Positions 7,475 through 19,823 of a stretch of 19,897 bases of DNA are shown here, piece by piece. The stretch comes from Promethearchaeota archaeon (GTDB lineage Archaea > Asgardarchaeota > Lokiarchaeia > Sigyniarchaeales > SOKP01): contig JAHPZE010000049.1 in NCBI GenBank assembly GCA_019058365.1, positions 1 through 19,897 on the forward strand. Reading direction: 5' to 3'. Both the position numbers and the translations under genes were made by a program. Under the pieces are notes generated by a model. It was not told where the DNA came from, did not search any database, and saw only the letters and a program-made list of their open reading frames with translations. How positions within the stretch are numbered: position 1 is the first letter of the stretch; every line of letters begins with the position of its first letter.

Positions 7475-7832
7475 GAGGATTATTAGGATTAATTTCATAT
7501 TTAAGTATTTGTTTCTATTAATGTAGATAATCAGGAAAAACAACTTACGCTATAAAATTGTATATATCGTACTTGAAAGTATAAAGCAATGAAAAATTAA
7601 TGATTTTCTTTATAATTTTTTTTTATAAAATTAAAAAGTATTTAAATATAACAATTAAAATTCATGATTAATCTCTTTTACTTTCTGTCTTATGTAATAA
7701 ATAGACAATTGCTAGAATTCTTATCTATTTACTTTTTTTAATTATTTAGGATTATATTAATTTTAATTCAATAAACAATTATAATTTTAAAGTATTGAGT
7801 TATAGCTATTTAAATAAATAAAGAGAGTTTTC

Positions 7833-8693
7833 ATGAGAATTAGTAAATTAATGTTATTAGAAGAGGCTATATCTACATATATACAAGATGGTGATCTAGT
7901 AGGAATAGGAGGGTTATCTTTCTGGAGAAAACCAATAAGTGCTTGTAGAGAAATAATTAAACAAAATAAAAAGGATCTATCTTTATGTACATTTGTTGGT
8001 GGTATTGAAGTGGATATGTTAATTGCTGGAGGATGTGTTTCAGAAGTACGTTCATGTTTTGTAGGGATGGAGATTTTTGGGATGGCTCCGCATTTCCGAA
8101 AAGCTGTAGAATCTGGTTCTATCAACATATCCGAAGAAAGTGAGGCTACTATTGCTTTAGGATTAAGAGCCTCATATTTAAAAGTTCCTTTTATGCCTCT
8201 AAAAGGTCTTATTGGAACCGATATGCCGAAAGTAAGGAATGATATTAAACAGATCGAAGATCCTCTTGGTTCTGGAACTCAGGTTATGGCTGTACCTAAG
8301 ATAGATTTAGATGTAGCAATTATTCATGTACCATATGCTGATGAATTTGGAAATGGAAATATTGCTGGAGCTGTATGGATGGATGCTGATATGGGAAAAA
8401 CAGCAAAAAAAACAATAATAACTTGCGAAAAATTAGTTGAAACGGAGGATATTCGCTATTTACCAGGGAAAGCCCAATTACCCCTTCAAACTACCAGCGC
8501 GGTTGTTAAAGTTCCTTTTGGAGCACATCCAACCTCGTGTTATCCTATATATACATTCGATCCGGGTCACATTCAATGCTATTTAAAAACTAATTTTGGA
8601 GAATATAAGGAAAAGTTCATAATAGGTAAAACAGCTACTCAATATTTTGAAGAGACTGGTGGAGTACAAACTATTTTTAATATATTGTTATAG
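7833..8693 (+). CDS. Family I CoA-transferase-fold alpha subunit (GctA/IpdA/AibA-like), 286 aa
   Basis: DGDLVGIGG..RKP, DMLIAGG, LRA...PFMP, DVAIIHV..ADEFGN and PFGAHPTSC motifs. Confidence 0.9.
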   Translation: MRISKLMLLEEAISTYIQDGDLVGIGGLSFWRKPISACREIIKQNKKDLSLCTFVGGIEVDMLIAGGCVSEVRSCFVGMEIFGMAPHFRKAVESGSINISEESEATIALGLRASYLKVPFMPLKGLIGTDMPKVRNDIKQIEDPLGSGTQVMAVPKIDLDVAIIHVPYADEFGNGNIAGAVWMDADMGKTAKKTIITCEKLVETEDIRYLPGKAQLPLQTTSAVVKVPFGAHPTSCYPIYTFDPGHIQCYLKTNFGEYKEKFIIGKTATQYFEETGGVQTIFNILL

Positions 8694-8697
8694 GAGG
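8693..8697 (+). promoter_or_regulatory. Shine-Dalgarno motif for the beta-subunit gene
   Basis: GGAGG lies 8 nt upstream of ATG 8706 and overlaps the alpha-subunit stop codon. Confidence 0.7.
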
Positions 8698-8705
8698 GCA
8701 AACTG

Positions 8706-9587
8706 ATGAGTGAATATTCAAAAGATTATACCATTGATGAAATGATGACTGTTTTAATGGCAAGAGAAGTCAGAAATGATGATGTAATGATTGTTGGTGT
8801 TGCAACTCCCATGGTATGGGCAGCTTTTACTTTAGCAAAAGTAACTCACGCTCCTGATGCTATATATCATTATATTATGGGGAATACATTTGTATTAGAA
8901 GCTCGTCAAGTATCACTACTCTATCTTGAAATGAATACAACAAGGGCATATCGATTTCAAGACAGTGTAGAATGTACATTAGAATCTCTTCCTTCAGATA
9001 AGTTAACTACCATAGAATTCTTTAGACCTGCTCAATTAGATCAATATGGGAATAGTAATAACATTTGCATAGGAGACTGGAATAAGCCAAAAATAAGACT
9101 CCCGGGAGCGGCAGGAATTCTTGACTTTAGCATGTTTTATGCTCGTGGTTCTTTTCTTTATACTCCTCGCCATGATAAAAGAACATTTGTTCCAACTGAA
9201 AAACTAGATTTTATTTCAGGTGTCGGTTTTTCTGATGGGAAGCAATCTATATGTGGTGGTGCTGGCCCTCAATGTGTAATCACCAATTTAGCTTACTTAA
9301 ATTTTGATGGAACAACTAAAAGAATGAGATTAAATTCTTATCATCCTGGGGTTGATGTTGAAGGTATTAAAGAATCAACAGGATTTGACCTGATCGTTCC
9401 AGAAGAAATAAAAGAAACGATACCTCCTACTAAGAAAGAAATTGAATTATTAAGAAAAAGAGTAGATCCGTTAAATATCAGAAAATTGGAAGTTTTTTCT
9501 GGCAGAGAACGAGAAGAACTATTAGATGATATAATTCAAAAAGAATTGGCAAAACAAAATAAATTTCCAGAATTACTTTGTAATTAA
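8706..9587 (+). CDS. Family I CoA-transferase-fold beta subunit (GctB/AibB-like) lacking the canonical catalytic Glu, 293 aa
   Basis: AKVTHAPD, AQLDQYGNSN, RLPGAAG, VITNLA, HPGV, TGFDL and VDP motifs. It lies 12 nt after the alpha subunit. Confidence 0.9.
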   Translation: MSEYSKDYTIDEMMTVLMAREVRNDDVMIVGVATPMVWAAFTLAKVTHAPDAIYHYIMGNTFVLEARQVSLLYLEMNTTRAYRFQDSVECTLESLPSDKLTTIEFFRPAQLDQYGNSNNICIGDWNKPKIRLPGAAGILDFSMFYARGSFLYTPRHDKRTFVPTEKLDFISGVGFSDGKQSICGGAGPQCVITNLAYLNFDGTTKRMRLNSYHPGVDVEGIKESTGFDLIVPEEIKETIPPTKKEIELLRKRVDPLNIRKLEVFSGREREELLDDIIQKELAKQNKFPELLCN

Positions 9588-9782
9588 TTTTAATATTTTT
9601 ATAATGTAGAGAAGAAAATAATGAGGAAATGACGATAATTTTATTCTAAAATGACTTTTGAGTAAATTATCGATTACACTTTTCGATTTAAGTTAATATA
9701 ATAGATTTTTTTCTATTATTTAAGTTAATTTTTGTAGTATTTATAGAAATAACTACCTTTATAAACAATAGTATTTATATAA

Positions 9783-9830
9783 TTACTTAATTACTGCACT
9801 AGAGTATTATTTACGGCAGTAATTGAATAA
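9783..9830. repeat. Inverted repeat upstream of the DUF2284-corrinoid cluster (candidate operator or hairpin)
   Basis: AATTACTGC (9789..9797) and GCAGTAATT (9816..9824) form perfect 9-bp arms with an 18-nt spacer, extendable to 15 bp with 2 mismatches. A TATA-like TTTATATA lies at 9774..9781. Confidence 0.55.
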
Positions 9831-9891
9831 GAGATTTTAATAAATAAATGAATATTTAAGTAAAAAAAGCACACTTAAAGCTGAGAATCTT

Positions 9892-10677
9892 ATGGTACAA
9901 AAATTAATTCCTGAAGTTGATAAAGAATGGTCAAAAATCTCTTTCAAATGGAGGAGGTTATTACCAAAATCGAAAGAAAGATCAACATCTCCAATAAAAT
10001 TCGAACCTGATGAAAAAGTTCTTAATGACCTTATTAAACGATCTAATAAAATCATTGATGAAATAATCTCAAAGTCAAAAACTAAAGCTAGTGGTCATGC
10101 TAAATTAATAACAACAGACAAAATTGTGATAGATCCACGTGTACGCTGGAAATGCCAAATTCCCATCTGTTTTGGCTTTGGAACAAGTATTAATTGTCCT
10201 CCACACTCTCCTACTACGAACGAGATGAGAGAAATCGTTAATAGTTACAGATATGCTATTTTAATATCATTTTATCCACCGATAAAAAACCATGTTTTCC
10301 CTAGTATTCTTTTAGGAGTACAAGGAGATGTTAATTTGTTAAGTCAAATGGTTGGTATGATCGAGGGAGAAGCTACTTACATGGGATATTATCTTGCTAT
10401 GGGATTTAAGGGAGGTCCTTGTGTTGGTTGTGGATTTTTTTCTCCAGAATATTTCAAAGATTTAATGCAACAAAAAAAGATACCGCCCTGTCCTGTACTC
10501 GATAATCAAATGTGTCGACAATATCTGAGAGCTCGCCCAGCTTTAGAGGCATGTGGTGTGGATAGTTTTGCTACAGCTGTTAAATGTGGTGAAAAAGCAC
10601 CTTATGTAATTAATCCCGAGCATCCAAAAGAAGCAATACCATTTGTTGTTTGGCATGGTATTGTTTTGATAGTATAA
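9892..10677 (+). CDS. DUF2284 family predicted metal-binding protein, 261 aa
   Basis: DPRVRWKC..P.C..FG....CPP, E..A...GYY.A.GF.GGPCxxC, CR....ARPALEACGVD and terminal GIVLI motifs. Confidence 0.85.
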   Translation: MVQKLIPEVDKEWSKISFKWRRLLPKSKERSTSPIKFEPDEKVLNDLIKRSNKIIDEIISKSKTKASGHAKLITTDKIVIDPRVRWKCQIPICFGFGTSINCPPHSPTTNEMREIVNSYRYAILISFYPPIKNHVFPSILLGVQGDVNLLSQMVGMIEGEATYMGYYLAMGFKGGPCVGCGFFSPEYFKDLMQQKKIPPCPVLDNQMCRQYLRARPALEACGVDSFATAVKCGEKAPYVINPEHPKEAIPFVVWHGIVLIV

Positions 10678-10722
10678 TATCATTTATAATAAGAAATATT
10701 ATAGAGAGGTTTTCATGAAAAG

Positions 10723-11376
10723 ATGGGTTTAGAATATGATACTAAAACTGATAATGACAATTATTATATAAATAAAATCATTGATGCTGTAAATACATTG
10801 GATTTCTATTCAATGAAAGAATCAATTAAGGAGGCAATTGATATGGGAGTCTCCGTTATTGACATTATAAAGAGGGGTGTTATTGTAGGATTGGAGGAAT
10901 CAGGAGAAATGGGACTAATATTGGCTGCAGAAGCTCTTGAAGGGGAAATCATTTTAAACGATGAGCAGGAGCAGAAAAGATTGAAAAAATCTCGAAGATA
11001 CTCTGGAAAAGTAGTTATCGGGACAATAAAAGGAGATATACATAGTTTGGGTAAAAATATCGCAAGTATTATAATGAAATCATACGGTATGGATGTAATA
11101 GATCTCGGTGTGGATGTAGAACCTAAAGAATTTGAAAAATTCGCATATTTACCAGAGGTAAAAGTAATTGGTATATCTTTTCTCCTCTCATCAGTAGAAA
11201 ACCGAATTAAAGAAGTAATGTCTTTATTAAAAAAAGGAGAATTGAAAGATAAAGTTAAAGTTATTCTTGGAGGTGCTGCTGTTTCACCAGAAATCGCAGC
11301 TGAAACTAACGCAGACGCATTTGCGACAGATGCAATACAAGGGGTCAATATAATAGAAAAATGGTTAAGAAATTAG
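10723..11376 (+). CDS. Corrinoid (B12-binding) protein of the MtaC/MtbC methyltransferase type, 217 aa
   Basis: N-terminal helical cap domain followed by GDIHSLGKN (DxHxxG, His107 codon at 11041), DLGVDV, IGISFL and VILGGA. Confidence 0.92.
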   Translation: MGLEYDTKTDNDNYYINKIIDAVNTLDFYSMKESIKEAIDMGVSVIDIIKRGVIVGLEESGEMGLILAAEALEGEIILNDEQEQKRLKKSRRYSGKVVIGTIKGDIHSLGKNIASIIMKSYGMDVIDLGVDVEPKEFEKFAYLPEVKVIGISFLLSSVENRIKEVMSLLKKGELKDKVKVILGGAAVSPEIAAETNADAFATDAIQGVNIIEKWLRN

Positions 11377-11462
11377 ATTTATTGAAACTTTATTTTTAAT
11401 TATGTTTTTCAATCAATTTCAACATAATTTAAAATTTAATTTAATGAAAATAACAAATCTAA

Positions 11463-11469
11463 GAGGTGA
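11463..11469 (+). promoter_or_regulatory. Strong archaeal-type Shine-Dalgarno motif GAGGTGA
   Basis: GAGGTGA lies 6 nt upstream of in-frame ATA 11476. Confidence 0.7.
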
Positions 11470-11475
11470 GTAGAT

Positions 11476-13479
11476 ATAGAGAATAAGAGATTTACTCTCA
11501 TTTTAGAACCATTATCTAAACGAATAAATGTCGATTATGGAGCATTGGTTTATGATGCAGTACTAGCATTAAATTTCCCGATAAGTGCTTTATGTGCAGG
11601 TAGAGGAACATGTGGAAAGTGTGTTACTCAAATTGTAGATTCTAATCCTAAGATTTCAGTACCATCTGATACAGAAAAAAAAATTTTGGGTAATGAAAAA
11701 ATAAAAGAGGGTTATAGGTTGGCTTGTCAAACTCGAATATTTGGTGATTTAAGAGTCTACCTTACTGATTCATTAATCCCAAAAGGATCCAGAATTATAG
11801 TTGATTCAGATTTAGAATCTCTTGGAATAAATACTGAGAGTAAAATTAGACCAATTATCACCTCCCAAATATATGATTTTAATATTGAGGATTTATCCAA
11901 TTTAGAGAATGATTTTTCTTTATTGGAAAATATTATTCTGAAAAATAATGACTTTAAAATATCTAAAAATCATAAATTATTGTATTTTGATGATTCTCTT
12001 TATAATATTACTAGAAAGTTGCCTCAGATTATAAGAGGACAAAATAATAAAATTACTGCTTTTTTCAGAAAGCTTTCATCTGAAGAACCGTGGATTCTTT
12101 ATGATATTGATATTGGAGATGTTAAAGATAAAATATTTGGATTAGCTGTTGACATTGGAACTACTACAATTGTAGGTTATCTTATTTATTTAAAAACAGG
12201 TGAAATTACCGCTATATCTTCAATGTTAAATCCTCAGGTTAAGATTGGGGAAGATATTGTTTCAAGAATTTCTTATATTATAAAAAATGACGGGATGGAT
12301 GTAGCAAAGGATTTATTAGTTAAAGCTATAAATCACTTGTTAGAAGATTCTTGTGATAAAGCACATATATCTACATCAGAAGTTAGAGATATTTCAATTG
12401 TAGGTAATACTGCTATGCACCACATGTTTTTTGGAATACCAACTGAATTTTTGGCTGTTTCACCATATAACCCAGTCTTTAAAGCTCCAATCAATTTGAG
12501 TGCTGGTATTCTTGGCATCAATTGTAATCCTAATATAAATGTGTATTCACCCCCTGTTGTTGCAGGTTATATAGGAACAGATACAATTGGAGGTATTATA
12601 TCATCTAAGATCAATACGTACAAAAAATATACACTTTTAATTGATATTGGGACTAATGGAGAGCTAGTTCTGGGAAATAATGAAGGGCTTGTTGCTTGCT
12701 CTTGTGCTGCAGGTTCAGCTTTAGAGGGTGTGCATATTTCAAATGGTATGCGCGCTTCAGAGGGAGCAATTGAATCTGTTATAATAGATAAAGAAACATT
12801 AGAACCAACATTTACTGTAATAGGCGATCAAAATCCAATTGGATTATGTGGATCAGGACTTATTGATATAGTAGCAGAATTGTTAAAATCACAAATTATC
12901 ACACGAGCAGGAAAATTCAATATTAAATCAAAGAAGTTGATTAATAACAGAAGAATTGTGAAAAAAGAAGATGGATATCATTACATCATATATAATAAAG
13001 TATGGGATGATAGTTCCTTTCAAGACAGTATTAATAAAAATACCATTAGGGAAATTACACTTTCTCAGAAAGATATTCATCAACTGCAATTAGCAAAAGG
13101 AGCGTTCTTATCGGCAGCAAATTTATTGCTTAACATGGGAAGCAAAACTCATGGTGATCTTGAACAAATCCTTTTAGCAGGAGGCTTTGGAACTTACATT
13201 AATAAAGATAATGCTGCCTTCATAGGTTTATTTCCTGAGGTTGATCAAAATGACATTTATCAAATAGGGAATTCAGCTGGAGTTGGAGCACAATTATTTA
13301 TAAAAGATTTTGAGCAGAGGAATATTGCAAATACAATTGCTTATGAGATAAAATATCGAGATATTGCGTTATCACCGAAATTTCAAATGGAATATGCTTT
13401 TTCTCTTTATTTCCCACATTATAATCTGAATAAATTCCCTAAGATAATGCAAGAATATAACGAAATACCTTTAACTTGA
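11476..13479 (+). CDS. RACo/AcsV-type ATP-dependent reductive activator of corrinoid proteins (N-terminal [2Fe-2S] plus ASKHA/DUF4445); about 667 aa from a probable ATA start (ORF track starts at TTG 11545)
   Basis: CAGRGTCGKC...RLACQ [2Fe-2S] motif; DIGTTT, DIGTNGE, CAAGSALEG, GLCGSG, QLAKGA, LAGGFG and GNSA motifs. The ferredoxin first strands (FTLILEPLSKRINVDYG) lie upstream of 11545 in frame. Confidence 0.9.
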   Translation: MENKRFTLILEPLSKRINVDYGALVYDAVLALNFPISALCAGRGTCGKCVTQIVDSNPKISVPSDTEKKILGNEKIKEGYRLACQTRIFGDLRVYLTDSLIPKGSRIIVDSDLESLGINTESKIRPIITSQIYDFNIEDLSNLENDFSLLENIILKNNDFKISKNHKLLYFDDSLYNITRKLPQIIRGQNNKITAFFRKLSSEEPWILYDIDIGDVKDKIFGLAVDIGTTTIVGYLIYLKTGEITAISSMLNPQVKIGEDIVSRISYIIKNDGMDVAKDLLVKAINHLLEDSCDKAHISTSEVRDISIVGNTAMHHMFFGIPTEFLAVSPYNPVFKAPINLSAGILGINCNPNINVYSPPVVAGYIGTDTIGGIISSKINTYKKYTLLIDIGTNGELVLGNNEGLVACSCAAGSALEGVHISNGMRASEGAIESVIIDKETLEPTFTVIGDQNPIGLCGSGLIDIVAELLKSQIITRAGKFNIKSKKLINNRRIVKKEDGYHYIIYNKVWDDSSFQDSINKNTIREITLSQKDIHQLQLAKGAFLSAANLLLNMGSKTHGDLEQILLAGGFGTYINKDNAAFIGLFPEVDQNDIYQIGNSAGVGAQLFIKDFEQRNIANTIAYEIKYRDIALSPKFQMEYAFSLYFPHYNLNKFPKIMQEYNEIPLT

Positions 13480-13565
13480 TCTTTAAAAAAATTAATTGAT
13501 ATAACATTATTTAATTTAAAGATTATTTATACATATTATCATTTAAGTAAGATAAAAAAGATATA

Positions 13566-15371
13566 ATGAAAACAGGAAAAGGAAGAATCGTAAAACGGAA
13601 ATCTGGCAATCGAAGATATGATAGTTTTTGGGTATATATCCCCAGTAAAATTTCAAGGGATTATGATTTTCCTTTCAGTGATAAAGAAGAAGTTCTAATA
13701 GATTTAATCGGGGAGCGTTTGAATATTCGTAAGATCTATAATCTAAGTGAACTTACAAGAACTCATGCTATTGAAGATGCTACAATCCCAAAAATAATAG
13801 AAAGTAAAGCATCTTTAAATAAAGATAAACCGTGTATCTATTATCGAGATAAAATTTATTCATATCAAGATGTAAATACAATATCAAATCAAATTGCAAA
13901 CACTCTTGTGAAATTAAATAAAAAATTACAATTAAAAAATCCTAAAATTTCTTTAATGCTTCACAATTGCCCAGAATCTCTTTTTTGTTGGTTTGGTGTA
14001 GCAAAAGCAGGTTGTGTTTTTGTACCAATTAGTTATTTGTTTAAAAAAGAATTATTAGAATTTGTTTTAAAAAATAGCGATACTGAGATATTAATTATTG
14101 ATCACAAATATTATGCTAATTTTAAAGAAATTAGAGAGAATTTACCAAAGATTAAGAAAATATTTATTCGAAATGCACCAAATGATTACAAATTCGATGA
14201 AAATTGTGTCGGATTTGAAAAACTCTTCTCAGAAAATATAAAGAACCCTAAGATTAATATAAATAGCTATTATCCTCTTGAAATCGCTTATACTTCGGGG
14301 ACTATAGGTAAACCCAAAGGGGTTTTATATAGAAATTATTATACTTTATCTGGAATTAGTGTAGTGAAGGCATGGGAAAATTTAGGATTTACTAACGAAA
14401 ATATCAAGTTTTATTGTCCATTACCATTATTTCAAGGATTTGTGCGATATTTTGTAATAATTCCAGTCATTTTTTTTGATGGATCGATAATTATCGCAGA
14501 AAAATTTAATGCTTCAACATTTTGGAGTGATGTTGATTATTATAAACCTAATTGTTTTTGCTATTATGGAGCTTATTTAACAAAATTGGTTAATCAACCA
14601 CCAAAGAAAATGGATAGAAATCATTCAATTAAGTATGCTTTTGGAGCAGGTGCATTAAAAAAGGTATGGGAAACCTTTGAAAGAAGATTTGGTACACAAA
14701 TTATAGAAATGTGGTCTTTAGTTGAAGGTATTGGACTCACTATTAATATTGAAGGATCTAAAGGGGGAAAATTAGGTTCTATAGGAAAAACAGCATTAGG
14801 ATTTGATGTCAAACTCCTTGATTTAGAGGGAAATATAATACCTTCTGGTCGTGATAATATTGGTGAAATTTGTGCAAGATTTAGGCTACCCTTTGAACTT
14901 GAGTATTATAATTTAAAAGAAGAATCGATAACTAGAAAAGGAAAAGAAAGATGGGTGTATACTGGTGATTTTGGTTATTCTGACCATGAAGGATTCATTT
15001 ACTATTTAGGGAGAAAATCAGATATGATTATCAGAGGAGAACATACATTTTTTGCTATTGATATCGAAATTGTGGCAAATTCACATCCTCTAATTGAAGG
15101 AAGTGCTGTTTTTGAAGTTATTGATAAAAAAACTTTAGAAAAGGAATTAAAAATATGTGCTGTGATTAAACAAGGAGCAAAAATTACTCCAAATGAGTTT
15201 TATGACTTCTTAAAGCAAAATCTTGCATATTTTATGGTGCCCCGTTATATTGAATTTAAAAAAGAAATACCAAAAAACGCAAATGAATTTATTCAAAAAT
15301 TTATTTTGCAAAAAGACTGGGAAAAAGGAACTTCAAAAGGTAAAACTTATGACACTAAAGCATTATTTTAG
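13566..15371 (+). CDS. CaiC-like ANL-superfamily (AMP-binding) protein with an N-terminal AbrB/SpoVT-like domain and degenerate catalytic motifs, 601 aa
   Basis: A3 YTSGTIGKPKG (14289..14321), A7 TGD, GRKSD and LAYFMVPRYIEF are present. A5 reads WSLVE and A10 reads PKNANEFIQK. Residues 1-56 carry VYIP...D..FPF...EEV.I......L.IRK. Confidence 0.85.
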   Translation: MKTGKGRIVKRKSGNRRYDSFWVYIPSKISRDYDFPFSDKEEVLIDLIGERLNIRKIYNLSELTRTHAIEDATIPKIIESKASLNKDKPCIYYRDKIYSYQDVNTISNQIANTLVKLNKKLQLKNPKISLMLHNCPESLFCWFGVAKAGCVFVPISYLFKKELLEFVLKNSDTEILIIDHKYYANFKEIRENLPKIKKIFIRNAPNDYKFDENCVGFEKLFSENIKNPKININSYYPLEIAYTSGTIGKPKGVLYRNYYTLSGISVVKAWENLGFTNENIKFYCPLPLFQGFVRYFVIIPVIFFDGSIIIAEKFNASTFWSDVDYYKPNCFCYYGAYLTKLVNQPPKKMDRNHSIKYAFGAGALKKVWETFERRFGTQIIEMWSLVEGIGLTINIEGSKGGKLGSIGKTALGFDVKLLDLEGNIIPSGRDNIGEICARFRLPFELEYYNLKEESITRKGKERWVYTGDFGYSDHEGFIYYLGRKSDMIIRGEHTFFAIDIEIVANSHPLIEGSAVFEVIDKKTLEKELKICAVIKQGAKITPNEFYDFLKQNLAYFMVPRYIEFKKEIPKNANEFIQKFILQKDWEKGTSKGKTYDTKALF

Positions 15372-15665: not shown

Positions 15666-18600
15666 ATGAAATTAACTAATAAACTTGAATTGATTTATAT
15701 TCCTGTAACTTACTGGAATGAACCTTCAAGTAGTTTTGAATTGACTTCTGAAGAAAAACACCTTCCTCGAAATACTAATTTTTTTCTACTATGGATTCCT
15801 TCAAATAAATCAGAAAAAGTGCTTACTGAACAGATAAAACTTACATTTCCACGTATTCCTATAAAGAAGCTTTTTTCATGTAAAATTAACCTTGCGATTC
15901 CCTTTAGTTTGTTAAATACTAAAAAAGATCCAGCTTTTTCAAAAGAATTCTTTCAAGTTGTATCTCACTTAGGAAAAATAATACCTATCTCACCAGCAAC
16001 AAAATTACTTTACCAATTAGAAATAATAGAAAATACTGATCGTAGTAAAATACATTATAGTAATTCAATTAAAACATGGGCTCTTCTTACCAAATTTGTT
16101 TTTGAGTTGTTAAATAAAGGTCAATTCGTGCCTATGCTAGAAAGTACATCCCAAAAGTTTTATAATGGTCAATGGCGTTTAATTTTAAAATCCCAATTTG
16201 ATAGTGATCGTTTTAAATCTATTTTGACTAAAAGTACTTGGCCCGCTTTTTGTTTACCCATAGATTTCTTCCGTGAAGAAGATATTATTAAAACAAATGG
16301 TCTCTGGCACCCATCTTATATTTTTTCAACATTCATTGATAGTGTAGGAGATTTTTTGATACGTTATACACTAAATAAAAGTAAATTTCAAACTTTTAAA
16401 GAATTTTATAGCACTGAAAGGAAAAAAGAAATAGATCCAGAATTTAAATTAAGTTGGGATTATAAATATCTGAAAGCACTTATCGAAAAAGACTCTACTT
16501 TTAGAGTAGATGAATTTTATGAAACGATACTGCCTACTTTAATTAGGAATTGGACTCAATCTGCTCAAAGTATTCAATTAACGCATGAATTTACCTTGAG
16601 TTTAGAATTAAAATATCCTGAACAGAATGAAGATGATTGGTTATTAACATTCTCCCTTTTATTACAGGATGGAAATAAAACTATCCCTTTAAATGAGTTC
16701 TGGGAAGGAAATAAATTGAAAGAAGGAGAATTTTCTAAAATTCTTGAAAGCGATGGACACTATTTAGAAACAATTTTAAGAGCATTAGGTACAGCTTCAA
16801 AGATTTTTCCACCAATCAAAAGAGCTTTTTTAGAAAAAATTCAACATGAAATCAAACTTTCTTCCAGTGAAGTAATTGATTTTTTGAAATATCCAAAAGA
16901 TCTTTTAATTCAAATTGGATTTAATATTGTTCTACCTAATGTCTTTACAAGAGGAGGAAAACAACGTTTAACAGCTAGGCTGATAATTCGATCAAAAGAA
17001 AGTAAAAAGCTTACAAAAGGAAAATCTACTGTTTTACCATCAATCTTTGATATCAATTCGATGTTAGAAACAAAATGGGAGGCTAGGATTGGAGGAAAAA
17101 CAATCACAGAAAATGAATTCCATAACTTAATTAACTCTGACGAACCTCTGATTAATCTAAGAGGAGAATGGATTTTAGTTGATCAACAGGATCTTGAAGA
17201 TTTAAAAAATATTAAAGAAACTGAAACAAAAAGTTATATAGATGCTTTAAAGCTTGGGTTAACGGGAGAGATTCAATTAAAAGAAAATGGTCACACGTAT
17301 GATGTAGTTATTGAAGGAGAATTAAGTAGAATTATTAAAAGGATACAATCAATAGATTCTTTCGAGAATATACCTTGTCCATCTTCATTTAAAGGGAATC
17401 TACGTCATTATCAGCAAGCAAGTCTTGTGTGGATAGGGAATATGATAAAGTTTAACTTTGGATTGTGTTTAGCTGACGACATGGGACTTGGAAAAACCAT
17501 TCAGATCATTGCATTTTTACTTTATCTTAAAGAAAATTATCCTACTAATTCGGGAGCTGTTTTGATTGTGTGTCCCACTTCAATATTATTTAATTGGTAC
17601 CGTGAATTAAAGAAATTTGCTCCTGATTTAGACGTTGTACTTCATCATGGAGCTAGACGATATAAAAAAGCTTCAGAAATTCCAGAATTCTTAGAACCAC
17701 ACCGAATTTTTTTAACATCTTATGGAACTATTAGAAATGATATTGATTTCTTAGAAACAATTCGATTTAGTGGAATTATTGTTGATGAAAGCCAAAATAT
17801 GAAAAATTATTCCTCAAAACAGACGCAAGCAATATACAAATTACAAAGTCAATACAGAATTTGTTTAAGTGGAACACCTATAGAAAATCGTTTACTTGAG
17901 CTATGGTCGCTTTTTAACTTTTTAAATCCAAGGCTTTTAGGAACTAGAACTGAATTTCAAAGAAATTTTATTTTACCAATAGAACGATTTCAAGACCAAG
18001 AAGCTATTGATAAATTAAAACTAATCATTTCACCATTTATCATGCGCCGGGTTAAATCTGATAAAAGTATAATAAGTGATTTACCTGAAAAGAATGAAAT
18101 GAAGCTTTATATTGAATTGAGCGATGAGCAAAAAAAAATATATAGAGAGCTAGTAGAAGAATCTCTAAAAGAAATTGAAAGTACTTCTTCTGATGACAGA
18201 AAGAAAAGGGGATTAGTACTTGGATTATTGGTAAAATTAAAACAGATCTGTAATCATCCATTTCAATATTTAAAAATTAATGCGGAATCAGTCAATACTA
18301 AGTTAAAAATGAAAGAATTTGTTTCTCAATCACAAAAAGTAGAAAGATTATTAGAGATGACTGATGAAGTCATTATGAATGGAGGAAAAGTTTTAATCTT
18401 CACTCAGTTTACTCAAATGGGAGATTTATTGCATAAAATACTTGAGATAAAACACGATTTTAGGATTCTATATTTTCATGGGGGTGTGCCAGAAAAGAAG
18501 AGAAGAGAAATTATTGATGAATTTCAATCTGAAGATATTGAAAGTCCGCCAATAATGATATTATCGTTAAAAGCTGGGGGCACGGGATTAAATCTAACTC

Positions 18601-18863
18601 AAGGAACTACTGTTATCCATTACGACTTATGGTGGAATCCCGCAGTAATGGATCAAGCTACAGACAGAGCTTATAGAATAGGACAGAAATCAATCGTAAA
18701 TGTGTATAAGTTCATTACTATCGGAAGCATTGAAGAAAAAATAGATATTTTATTAGAAGAAAAACGGGATTTAGCCGATAAGATTGTTTCATCTACAGGA
18801 GAATCTTGGATTTCTGACTTAGATAATGAAAAACTAAAAGAATTATTAACATTAAGTAGCTAA
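15666..18863 (+). CDS. SNF2/SWI2-family helicase-like ATPase (prokaryotic SWIM-associated type with a DUF3670-like region), 1065 aa
   Basis: LADDMGLGKT, VCPTS, DESQNMKN, LSGTPIENRL.ELWS, LKQICNHP, IFTQF, SLKAGGTGLNL and WWNPAV..QATDRAYRIGQ motifs; upstream PLINLRGEWILVD. Confidence 0.95.
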   Translation: MKLTNKLELIYIPVTYWNEPSSSFELTSEEKHLPRNTNFFLLWIPSNKSEKVLTEQIKLTFPRIPIKKLFSCKINLAIPFSLLNTKKDPAFSKEFFQVVSHLGKIIPISPATKLLYQLEIIENTDRSKIHYSNSIKTWALLTKFVFELLNKGQFVPMLESTSQKFYNGQWRLILKSQFDSDRFKSILTKSTWPAFCLPIDFFREEDIIKTNGLWHPSYIFSTFIDSVGDFLIRYTLNKSKFQTFKEFYSTERKKEIDPEFKLSWDYKYLKALIEKDSTFRVDEFYETILPTLIRNWTQSAQSIQLTHEFTLSLELKYPEQNEDDWLLTFSLLLQDGNKTIPLNEFWEGNKLKEGEFSKILESDGHYLETILRALGTASKIFPPIKRAFLEKIQHEIKLSSSEVIDFLKYPKDLLIQIGFNIVLPNVFTRGGKQRLTARLIIRSKESKKLTKGKSTVLPSIFDINSMLETKWEARIGGKTITENEFHNLINSDEPLINLRGEWILVDQQDLEDLKNIKETETKSYIDALKLGLTGEIQLKENGHTYDVVIEGELSRIIKRIQSIDSFENIPCPSSFKGNLRHYQQASLVWIGNMIKFNFGLCLADDMGLGKTIQIIAFLLYLKENYPTNSGAVLIVCPTSILFNWYRELKKFAPDLDVVLHHGARRYKKASEIPEFLEPHRIFLTSYGTIRNDIDFLETIRFSGIIVDESQNMKNYSSKQTQAIYKLQSQYRICLSGTPIENRLLELWSLFNFLNPRLLGTRTEFQRNFILPIERFQDQEAIDKLKLIISPFIMRRVKSDKSIISDLPEKNEMKLYIELSDEQKKIYRELVEESLKEIESTSSDDRKKRGLVLGLLVKLKQICNHPFQYLKINAESVNTKLKMKEFVSQSQKVERLLEMTDEVIMNGGKVLIFTQFTQMGDLLHKILEIKHDFRILYFHGGVPEKKRREIIDEFQSEDIESPPIMILSLKAGGTGLNLTQGTTVIHYDLWWNPAVMDQATDRAYRIGQKSIVNVYKFITIGSIEEKIDILLEEKRDLADKIVSSTGESWISDLDNEKLKELLTLSS

Positions 18864-18881: not shown

Positions 18882-19823
18882 ATCGATAATAGAAAAAAAG
18901 AATATTTACAAGGTAGAAGGCTTAAGCGGAAAGGACCTGAAACTCCAAAAAGAAAGACAGAGTATGAAAAGCAGCGCACTCGTGAGGAAGTTGATCAAAT
19001 TAAAAAAAATTTAATTAATTTTGCCAAAACTTCTTGGGGAAAAGAGTGGATTTTATCAAATTTGAAAATTGGACGCCCTTTTAGGATGCAGCGAGGGATT
19101 GAATATGTAAAAGATGAAAGACGCATCGATAACATGTCCATTAATCCAGGATTAATTTTTGCGACTGTTCAAGGTACAGCACCAACTCCCTACAGAGTAA
19201 AAATCAATTTTGAAACAATACCTGAAGATAAATGGGATATTATAATTGATAAACTCTCCAATAAAATCATTAATCTCATAGAATTATTAGATGGTCTTTT
19301 ACCAGAAGATTTAATTTCTATTTTTAATGAAAGCAATTATTCGTTATTTCCAGATGCTTCAAAAGGTTTGAATGCTACTTGCTCTTGTCCTGATAAGGCT
19401 ATCCCCTGCAAACATATTGCTGCTGTAATTTTATACCTTGCTCGTGTTATAGACTATAATCCATTTCTGTTATTAGAATTAAGAGGAAAAACTAAGAGTG
19501 AAATTCTAACTGATTTAAGTTTATCACAATCAGTAGAAAGTGAACTAAGAATTGAAAAAGACCCAGAGTTACATAAATTTGATTTTAAATTTAATGTACC
19601 ACAAATCTCCATCCAAGATTTATCCACTGAAAAAAAAACAACTAGATTTGATGAATATATTATTCATTTTAACCTTAAAAAACCAGGAAATATCATAGAA
19701 ACTTTGGAAAATTTAGGTATACCACAAATTGTTGAAAATAAAGCTTTTGAAATCGTTTTAAGAGCGATTTATCACAAAATTACATCTGAGACATATCGTT
19801 TGTCTTTAGAACTAAGTAAATAA
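18882..19823 (+). CDS. SWIM zinc-finger protein partnered with SNF2; about 313 aa from a probable ATC start (ORF track starts at TTG 19062)
   Basis: CSCPDKAIPCKHIAAV SWIM motif, VQGT..PY.V.I and PFLLLELRG. The family N-terminal motif FAKTSWGKEW lies upstream of 19062 in an open frame from 18876. The start position is uncertain. Confidence 0.88.
   Translation: MDNRKKEYLQGRRLKRKGPETPKRKTEYEKQRTREEVDQIKKNLINFAKTSWGKEWILSNLKIGRPFRMQRGIEYVKDERRIDNMSINPGLIFATVQGTAPTPYRVKINFETIPEDKWDIIIDKLSNKIINLIELLDGLLPEDLISIFNESNYSLFPDASKGLNATCSCPDKAIPCKHIAAVILYLARVIDYNPFLLLELRGKTKSEILTDLSLSQSVESELRIEKDPELHKFDFKFNVPQISIQDLSTEKKTTRFDEYIIHFNLKKPGNIIETLENLGIPQIVENKAFEIVLRAIYHKITSETYRLSLELSK

Follow-up and report, generated by a model that had tools for sequence, protein, structure and literature searches.

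A 601-codon gene in the window, a 19,897-nucleotide stretch from the genome of a Promethearchaeota archaeon (contig JAHPZE010000049.1), encodes a protein in which a small N-terminal domain with a predicted AbrB-like fold precedes a complete body of the ANL superfamily of adenylate-forming enzymes. This fusion gene lies 86 nt downstream of the last gene of a cassette for a DUF2284 protein, a B12-binding (corrinoid) protein and a RACo activator, the promoter of which carries a candidate operator (Table 1). Based on the DNA letters alone, the original prediction had described the fusion protein as a metabolite-sensing regulator built from a catalytically degenerate acyl-CoA ligase. Here, this proposal is weighed against structural models, family alignments, a phylogeny, and the upstream regions of the gene in relatives.

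Table 1 Features of the fusion gene and the adjacent cassette (positions in the window)
Feature	Position	Strand	Basis
AbrB-like/ANL fusion gene	13566..15371	+	601-aa open reading frame (ORF) and translation; full-length homologues with 44–89% identity
Predicted N-terminal AbrB/MazE/SpoVT-like swapped-hairpin domain, residues 1–56	13566..13733	+	AlphaFold 2 (AF2) model, fold matches, dimer model
Linker with short helix, residues 57–75	13734..13790	+	Helix 60–66; predicted local distance difference test (pLDDT) of the block 54–66, lowest between the domains
Large N-terminal ANL subdomain, residues ~76–485	13791..15020	+	PF00501 at 80–438; Foldseek matches to solved ligases
A3 P-loop YTSGTIGKPKGV, kept	14289..14324	+	G245, P250 and K251 invariant across the family
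A5, WSLVEG in place of YGxTE	14712..14729	+	Trp and Glu invariant, Thr lost
A7, YTGDFGY, ribose-binding Asp468 kept	14958..14978	+	Asp in 120/121 members
Small C-terminal ANL subdomain, residues ~486–601, from hinge Asp486	15021..15371	+	PF13193 at 500–573
A10 motif EIPKNANEFIQKF, Phe575 (15288..15290) in the catalytic Lys position	15264..15302	+	Ligase alignment, family column, codon check
Probable regulated cassette	9892..13479	+	Pfam: DUF2284 9892..10677, B12-binding protein 10723..11376, RACo activator 11545..13479
Candidate operator, exact palindrome TTACGGCAGTAA	9811..9822	.	70 nt before the DUF2284 start codon
Distal half-conserved site TTACtgcaCTAG	9791..9802	.	20 bp upstream of the exact site; TTAC half-site kept in relatives
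TATA-like box TTTATAAA	9758..9765	+	Conserved in aligned upstream regions; TATA role presumed
Eroded gene-proximal operator pair, e.g., tcatttaagtaa at 13539..13550 (two mismatches)	13510..13550	.	Homology to relatives

Domain architecture of the fusion protein

Pfam identified two domains in the fusion protein, AMP-binding (PF00501; E 3e-47, 161.5 bits with a cut-off of 29.9) and AMP-binding_C (PF13193; 30.5 bits with a cut-off of 24.5), and at Pfam level this two-subdomain AMP-binding fold is that of an ANL superfamily member. The full-length AF2 model has a pLDDT of 86.7 and a predicted template modelling score of 0.82, and the translation, the Pfam matches, and this model all agree with the original prediction that residues 1–56 stand ahead of a full ANL body. 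All 25 NCBIfam acyl-CoA-ligase models listed scored below their curated cut-offs (best ~246 bits vs cut-offs of 476–722). Some sources name homologues as the crotonobetaine/carnitine-CoA ligase CaiC; this identity was rejected because the CaiC model (NF005947) reached 245.2 bits, far under its equivalog cut-off of 651.

Residues 1–79 have no Pfam match, even at an E-value of 10, and residues 1–62, 1–70, and 1–80 searched alone matched nothing in Pfam or NCBIfam. The AF2 model of the N-terminal domain (hereafter, N-domain), run on a 59-sequence alignment, reached a pLDDT of 89.6 and comprises strands at 7–12, 19–24, 43–48, and 51–56 and a helix at 27–30. This is the beta1-beta2-alpha-beta3-beta4 topology (~50 residues) of the swapped-hairpin superfamily, which is also present in the full-length model. 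The isoelectric point (pI) of residues 1–60 is 9.9. A Foldseek comparison with the PDB returned MazE, VapB, or AbrB in 18 of the first 19 rows and C56, an archaeal plasmid protein from pSSVi, in the remaining row. Likewise, VIA-align, exhaustive over 48,161 representative chains, returned 5itj (a histone-like, Sso7c4-like protein), VapB, SpoVT, VapB, AbrB, and C56 in its first six rows. The scores of these matches are weak (Foldseek: E 0.3–2, probability 0.77–0.85; VIA-align top rows: Z 2.9–4.2, root-mean-square deviation [rmsd] 2.2–3.7 Å over 46–51 residues), as would be expected of a query that is half a barrel of 56 residues, and it is the near-unanimity of the matches that carries weight.

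Modelled as a homodimer, the N-domain reached an ipSAE (interaction prediction score from aligned errors) of 0.52, compared to 0.00 for the best control, with at least 98% contact agreement over three runs and a partner pLDDT of at least 73. In the calibration, 20 of 30 proteins solved as pairs attained the dimer mark, as did one of 23 solved as single chains. The chains pair across the interface at residues 3–8 with 41–46 (beta1-beta3'), 22–25 with 22–25 (beta2-beta2'), and 52–54 with 52–54 (beta4-beta4'), and the predicted arrangement is an interleaved swapped-hairpin dimer forming one barrel. Because AbrB-type dimers have already been solved, this pass may reflect likeness to them and is not proof. 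As a model, the AbrB/MazE/SpoVT-type fold originally proposed for the N-terminus has therefore held up, with a confident monomer, weak fold matches, and a passing dimer.

At the sequence level, phmmer and profile searches of PDB sequences with the N-domain returned chance rows only (gelatinase, galectin). Among fused members compared to Pfam, 2 of 59 match PF04014 and 13 of 59 match the B3-like PF20731. An N-domain profile search of 1.84 billion representatives found 401 proteins, mostly standalone and 55–90 residues long; of the 64 standalone homologues compared, 24 gave weak matches to PF04014 (best E 1.3e-4) and 6 matched SymE. This standalone family (P0136–P0270; signature GKGK...YxxxxIYxPxxVAxDSxFPFKxGExV...LIIEK) is apparently a branch of the AbrB/MazE superfamily that has not been curated. 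Its few named members are called 'hypothetical protein' and labelled Bathyarchaeota or Methanoculleus, with one Clostridia bacterium, and no standalone copy of the N-domain family was found in the window's genome. We accept the modelled N-domain as AbrB-like at the fold level, not as a PF04014 member by sequence.

Catalytic motifs of the ANL body across the family

A word-indexed search returned 286 matches, the best 120 of which were examined (family columns were counted over 121 members). Nearly all of these homologues are 599–615 residues long with 97–100% query coverage, and their source names point to Loki-/Promethearchaeota, Thor-, Hod-, and Hermodarchaeota, and one MCG archaeon. In more than 100 full-length homologues, the N-terminal 60 residues are conserved as well as the enzyme body (N-domain consensus: MKxAKGKITxKKSGNxGYKSxWIYIPSKIxKDxxFPFxDxEEVxIEL), and 7 of the 39 invariant columns of the family lie in the N-domain (Y18, W22, Y24, P26, F35, P36, and F37).

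To place the motifs, the fusion protein was aligned to solved ligases using phmmer. The A10 motif EIPKNANEFIQKF aligns column by column with ELPKTATGKIQRF of anthranilate-CoA ligase (AuaEII), and Phe575 (codon TTT) consequently occupies the position of the A10 lysine, which the ANL superfamily has in its Px4GK stretch. WSLVE (14712..14726) aligns with YAMTE, and Glu is the sole residue retained from the A5 signature YGxTE. In addition, A4 reads LPLFQ in place of LPLFH, with loss of the His, and the GEN stretch of A8 reads RGEHTF. The ATP-binding residues, i.e., the A3 P-loop YTSGTIGKPKGV, the Asp of A7 (YTGD), and the Arg of A8 (GRKSD), are all present. The original prediction had listed the kept A3 loop and A7 Asp and the altered motifs, and the translation agrees with it on each of them.

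The A10 lysine is described as a highly conserved, key catalytic residue that contacts the alpha-phosphate in adenylation and as a target of acetylation (PMC8388817). In the fused family, this column reads Leu (42), Glu (29), Phe (27), Met (6), and Lys (6) of 121, and 115 members lack the lysine. K578, three residues past the lost lysine, is kept in 111 of 121. The family form of A5 is W-S-[LH]-x-E-G, with invariant Trp and Glu. Hence, the loss of the A10 lysine goes together with the fusion, as the original prediction had suggested checking, and the alternative it named, a single decaying allele among homologues that generally keep the lysine, did not materialise. A decaying gene for a CaiC-like ligase, or a pseudogene of one, whose 5' extension is spurious might have explained why the NCBIfam scores lie so far under every curated cut-off (245 vs 651 bits for CaiC). 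However, the 601-codon frame is intact, more than 120 homologues of the same length share the invariant columns, and the motif changes are common to the whole family; given this conservation, we regard decay as refuted and its residual probability as negligible.

The window's genome (4.74 Mb, 29.5% G+C) contains 21 ANL-superfamily matches, one of which (C10:33197-34663) has an in-frame TAG. Apart from the fusion protein there are 20 matches, the nearest of which is 32% identical and starts at the equivalent of residue 72, and all 15 of the 15 paralogues read out keep the GK lysine. In a maximum-likelihood tree of the fused family, rooted on five canonical paralogues from this genome that retain GK and YGxTE, the six Lys-bearing sequences form a single derived clade (P0098, P0103, P0107, P0108, P0109, and P0118; A10: PRxxxTKFLK) nested among Lys-less clades (support 0.998). 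This nesting places the loss of the A10 lysine and of YGxTE at the root of the fused family, and the idea that the Lys-bearing clade is the ancestral, still-active form was rejected on the same grounds. The lysine in this clade may mean that catalysis was regained secondarily, or it may have arisen by neutral drift, the position being unconstrained.

When the ANL model was compared to anthranilate-CoA ligase, 4CL, and MatB using Foldseek, E-values ranged from 1e-34 to 1e-37. The model fits adenylate-state structures best (AuaEII with anthranoyl-AMP, 4CL with ATP, MatB with ATP), with an rmsd of 3.5–5.0 Å and a target-normalised template modelling score of 0.79–0.85, and fits thioester-state structures poorly (rmsd 10–13 Å).

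Judging from these motifs, the ANL body is most likely not a working ligase any more. Three observations argue for loss of normal ligase activity: hydrophobic or acidic residues replace the A10 lysine, that column varies freely, and the A5 Thr and A4 His are missing. On the other side, the P-loop, A5 Glu, A7 Asp, A8 Arg/Lys, and hinge are all strictly conserved, which indicates that selection still acts on nucleotide binding and on domain movement. This combination of lost catalytic residues and kept ATP-binding motifs would fit a sensor, and it would also fit a slow trigger enzyme, that is, an active adenylate-forming ligase that binds DNA in the manner of BirA or PutA and uses its own acyl-adenylate or product as co-regulator. 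The invariant or nearly invariant nucleotide-binding and hinge residues, the adenylate-forming conformation of the AF2 model, the nearly invariant K578, and the one derived clade with Lys again at A10 all speak for such an enzyme. It would, however, have to work without the residue that is key to the adenylation step (PMC8388817) and without the A5 Thr and A4 His, in a family where the A10 column (L/E/F/M/K) shows no selection for a catalytic side chain, and in a genome with ~20 other ANL matches, among which every one read out is canonical at GK. We therefore consider a trigger enzyme unlikely.

A palindrome at the fusion gene and at the corrinoid cassette

To search for operators, 28 upstream regions of fused genes were taken from public assemblies and 300 genomes of the phylum, representing 23 non-redundant loci. 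All 4-N(0–8)-4 palindromes within 100 nt before the start codon were counted exhaustively and compared to 2000 shuffles. TTAC-N4-GTAA ranked first among all of these palindromes and was found in 18 of the 23 loci (shuffle mean 0.07, maximum 2). Its position is fixed, at 21–32 nt before the start codon in most loci, and there is often a second, less perfect copy exactly 20 bp further upstream (about −30 and −50), with an A/T-rich TATA-like stretch between the two. Across six loci of 15–22 kb (~125 kb in total), there are only ten exact sites: five within ~60 nt of the fusion-gene start codon, one farther upstream in the same intergenic region, which is shared with a divergent ABC-transporter operon, two upstream of DUF2284, one just beyond the fusion-gene stop codon, and one between divergent ABC-transporter genes.

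The palindrome tracks the fusion gene across at least seven different neighbourhoods, in which the neighbours include thiolases, enoyl-CoA hydratase, other ligases, CoA-transferase, LIV-type and peptide-type ABC transporters, and the corrinoid cassette. In relatives that lack the cassette, it still accompanies the fusion gene and its divergent ABC-transporter neighbours (exact palindromes in intergenic regions shared with divergent transporter operons: L017:9716, 9950, 9970; L004:11817, 15198). The LIV-type operon (with a canonical ligase) and the peptide-type operon at those sites suggest lineage-specific local regulons.

These neighbourhoods bear on whether the fusion protein is an ordinary metabolic ligase, in which the N-domain merely dimerises or docks the enzyme and the palindrome belongs to a different regulator. 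The frequent location of the gene among acyl-CoA genes would be expected of such a ligase, as would an N-domain without a significant sequence match to a curated DNA-binding family. However, the fusion gene is the only gene always found with the palindrome, no other regulator gene is conserved nearby, the N-domain is basic with fold neighbours that are nearly all DNA-binding swapped-hairpin proteins, and the catalytic lysine has been lost family-wide. Taken together, these observations make an ordinary ligase improbable.

No methyltransferase is recognisable in the cassette. In 13 of the 21 loci examined, the cassette immediately precedes the fusion gene, and its promoter has the only exact TTAC-N4-GTAA in the 19.9-kb window. 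Among the 12 other syntenic loci in which the DUF2284 upstream region was covered, 11 have the exact palindrome before DUF2284, and the exception (L074) reads GTACGTTAGTAA, with one mismatch. The operator pair lies ~25–55 nt downstream of the TATA-like box, its 20–22 bp spacing matches that of the gene-proximal pairs, and relatives show a conserved TTTATAAA/TTTTTAAA box ~45–50 nt upstream of the cassette palindrome. The site at 9811..9822 is thus a candidate operator of the cassette promoter. Because it lies at or just after the expected transcription start, downstream of the TATA-like box, its position is of the repressor type and typical of archaeal repressors, from which we infer repression.

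An extended form of the palindrome, TTACGNNCGTAA, occurs 1–3 times per 3.4–4.5 Mb genome in the five genomes searched. In four of these, the sole intergenic occurrences are a pair at the DUF2284 promoter; the fifth genome (G201) has TTACGTCAGTAA at this promoter, and its single TTACGNNCGTAA match is intragenic. Third TTACGNNCGTAA sites in relatives were rejected as targets because those checked sit within coding regions. The pair is found in one group of relatives, where two exact copies stand 85–87 bp apart on both sides of the TATA-like box (L063:1958, 2043; L064:1810, 1895; L067:1807, 1894; L069:1898, 1985; L070:1995, 2082), a spacing that would suit DNA looping by a tetramer.

At the fusion gene itself, the window has only the eroded pair, located at the place where relatives with 80–84% identity have TTACgtaaGTAA-N8-TTACcataGTAA. 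Neither the window nor its 92%-identical relative (L023, G156:C61) has a site with one mismatch or fewer before the fusion gene. The erosion is confined to the lineage of the window and this relative, in which either autoregulation has been lost or the fusion gene is read through from the cassette promoter. The original prediction had the protein possibly regulate the neighbouring acyl-CoA and corrinoid genes and named three candidate stretches of DNA. The corrinoid part gained support, since 9588..9891 contains the exact site, whereas 13480..13565 has eroded sites only. The stretch before the CoA-transferase genes (7544..7832) contains no site with at most one mismatch, and an operator there was rejected.

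The window's genome contains 79 exact sites, 17 of which lie outside ORFs of at least 90 codons. The 16 intergenic sites other than the cassette site have no common theme (neighbouring genes encode a GFO/IDH oxidoreductase, TrmB and AsnC regulators, a beta-lactamase-fold protein, a Ras-like GTPase, and others) and approximate the number expected by chance, and a wider regulon was therefore rejected. With no site at the CoA-transferase genes and no theme elsewhere, the regulon appears to be local.

The N-domain profile has matches in 27 of 301 genomes of the phylum, in 21 of 68 of the window's family, and in 12 of 21 of its genus. Several genomes without a match are nearly complete, which marks the fusion gene as accessory. 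For the genus members covered by both searches, the fusion gene occurs together with a DUF2284 orthologue (at least 83% identity) in four genomes other than the window's; in one more, it is accompanied by a DUF2284 of 56% identity located on a different contig. Three genomes carry the fusion gene without DUF2284, and eight lack both. No genome in this sample has DUF2284 and lacks the fusion gene, which is a pattern, not a test, as kin are not independent.

Other genes in the vicinity vary among relatives. In the window and several close relatives, the cassette is preceded by two CoA-transferase-family subunits (7833..9587 in the window); in two relatives (L072, L073), the subunits immediately precede the fusion gene, and the corrinoid cassette does not intervene. 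Downstream of the fusion gene, the window encodes a 1065-aa SNF2-family helicase (15666..18863; DUF3670, SNF2, and Helicase_C) followed by a SWIM zinc-finger protein (19062..19823), a pair that is not conserved beside the gene in relatives.

A putative one-component regulator and its known counterparts

The sequence evidence makes it very probable that the fusion protein is a DNA-binding regulator that acts on TTAC-N4-GTAA. The fuller interpretation, a one-component transcription regulator whose sensor is an ANL fold that has lost catalysis, has in our estimate a probability of about 60%. It starts from the established architecture, family-wide motif pattern, and operator conservation, and adds that the protein would bind DNA, repress, no longer catalyse, and respond to a particular ligand. 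The layout is that of one-component regulators, with a DNA-binding-type and a ligand-binding-type domain in a single chain and a putative cognate operator at its own or an adjacent promoter.

In the mechanism that we propose, two N-domains would interleave into a swapped-hairpin dimer that recognises the 12-bp palindrome, usually as two sites 20 bp apart. The functional site in the window would be that at the promoter of the DUF2284/corrinoid-protein/RACo cassette, and autoregulation would be implied by the further pair that most relatives have at ~30 and 50 nt upstream of the regulator's own start codon. The ANL body, with its P-loop, A5 Glu, A7 Asp, A8 Arg, and hinge, could bind a nucleotide and a carboxylate, an acyl-adenylate, or an acyl-CoA, and a ligand-driven movement of the C-terminal subdomain or change of oligomer state would alter DNA binding. 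The acyl-CoA enzymes, the ABC transporters with a true ligase, and the corrinoid cassette among the neighbours point to a carboxylic acid or CoA ester as the ligand; a methylated or methoxylated acid, which would tie the sensor to the corrinoid system, is speculation. More tentatively, and with slightly less than even confidence, we suggest that the family is a natural allosteric switch made from an adenylate-forming fold, and founds an undescribed class of archaeal one-component regulators. In this switch, rotation of the C-terminal subdomain of the retired ANL body would determine how AbrB-type dimers are spaced or oligomerised on paired operators, and thereby switch the corrinoid cassette.

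Several observations weigh against a regulator with an ANL sensor. The structural scores of the N-domain are weak (Foldseek E at least 0.3; Z at most 4.2) and not decisive alone, and sequence comparisons of the window's N-domain gave no direct match to PF04014 or any solved chain. Palindrome and protein are linked by co-occurrence, and another factor could bind the sites. In the window, the promoter of the fusion gene lacks the palindrome, and the regulator would there be unregulated or read through. The strongly conserved nucleotide-binding motifs suit residual catalysis as well as sensing. Finally, the remaining intergenic sites of the genome match the chance expectation, with no wider regulon visible.

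A literature search found no paper on an AbrB-ANL fusion or on an ANL-fold sensor in a natural transcription factor, and a search on DUF2284 returned nothing relevant. To our knowledge, hardly any experimental work has addressed how transcription is controlled in Asgard archaea. If the interpretation as an ANL-type regulator is true, this would be, as far as our knowledge and the searched papers go, the first natural ANL-fold sensor of a transcription factor. Because regulator, probable operator, and target cassette can all be read from the sequence, the question lends itself to a direct test. Knowing the ligand would also give a first handle on the substrate of the cassette. The family would also be a natural experiment, in which a non-enzyme ANL fold keeps its ATP-binding motifs and discards the A10 Lys, the A5 Thr, and the A4 His.

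As a one-component regulator with a repurposed enzyme fold, the fusion protein would belong to a known type; it is the AbrB-ANL combination that is new to the searched literature. The best structural matches to the N-domain, MazE/VapB, C56/C68, and the Sso7c4-like 5itj, are small basic dimers that act on palindromic operators at their own promoters. Unlike MazE/VapB, the fusion protein has no toxin partner or toxin-binding tail, and its domain is fused to a 540-residue ANL body. SpoVT of Bacillus subtilis (PDB 2w1t; Z 3.4, rmsd 2.5 Å over 49 residues of the N-domain) similarly has an N-terminal swapped-hairpin AbrB-type domain followed by a larger ligand-type domain, although its C-terminal partner is GAF-like and not an enzyme fold, and the two proteins are not significantly similar in sequence. 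Whereas AbrB and SpoVT act as tetramers on loosely defined sites, the fusion family has a sharp, conserved 12-bp palindrome.

Other counterparts resemble the fusion protein in logic. BirA and PutA also join a DNA-binding domain to an enzyme and are the model for the trigger-enzyme alternative; in BirA, the adenylate intermediate is the corepressor. Both are fully active with all catalytic residues present, whereas the fusion protein lacks the A10 lysine. The sensor of BzdR from Azoarcus sp. CIB is an enzyme-like, shikimate-kinase-like domain, and this protein shares with our proposal the reuse of an enzyme fold as a sensor for an acyl-CoA pathway. BzdR is bacterial, its DNA-binding domain is of the helix-turn-helix XRE type, and its sensor fold is different. 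It is described as repressing benzoate genes depending on the cellular benzoyl-CoA concentration (PMC8388817). Canonical ANL ligases (AuaEII 4wv3, Nt4CL2 5bsm, MatB 4fut, and the CaiC family) share the two-subdomain fold, both Pfam domains, and A3, A7, and A8, whereas the fusion family has Phe, Leu, or Glu for the A10 Lys, WSxxE for the A5 YGxTE, and the additional N-terminal domain of DNA-binding type. The sensing principle of ANL folds has so far been exploited only in engineered biosensors, the GECFINDER series, which make use of ligand-coupled hinge motion (PMC10590383). These are artificial, read out by fluorescence, and retain adenylation activity, whereas the fusion protein would be a natural sensor that reports to DNA with its catalysis lost.

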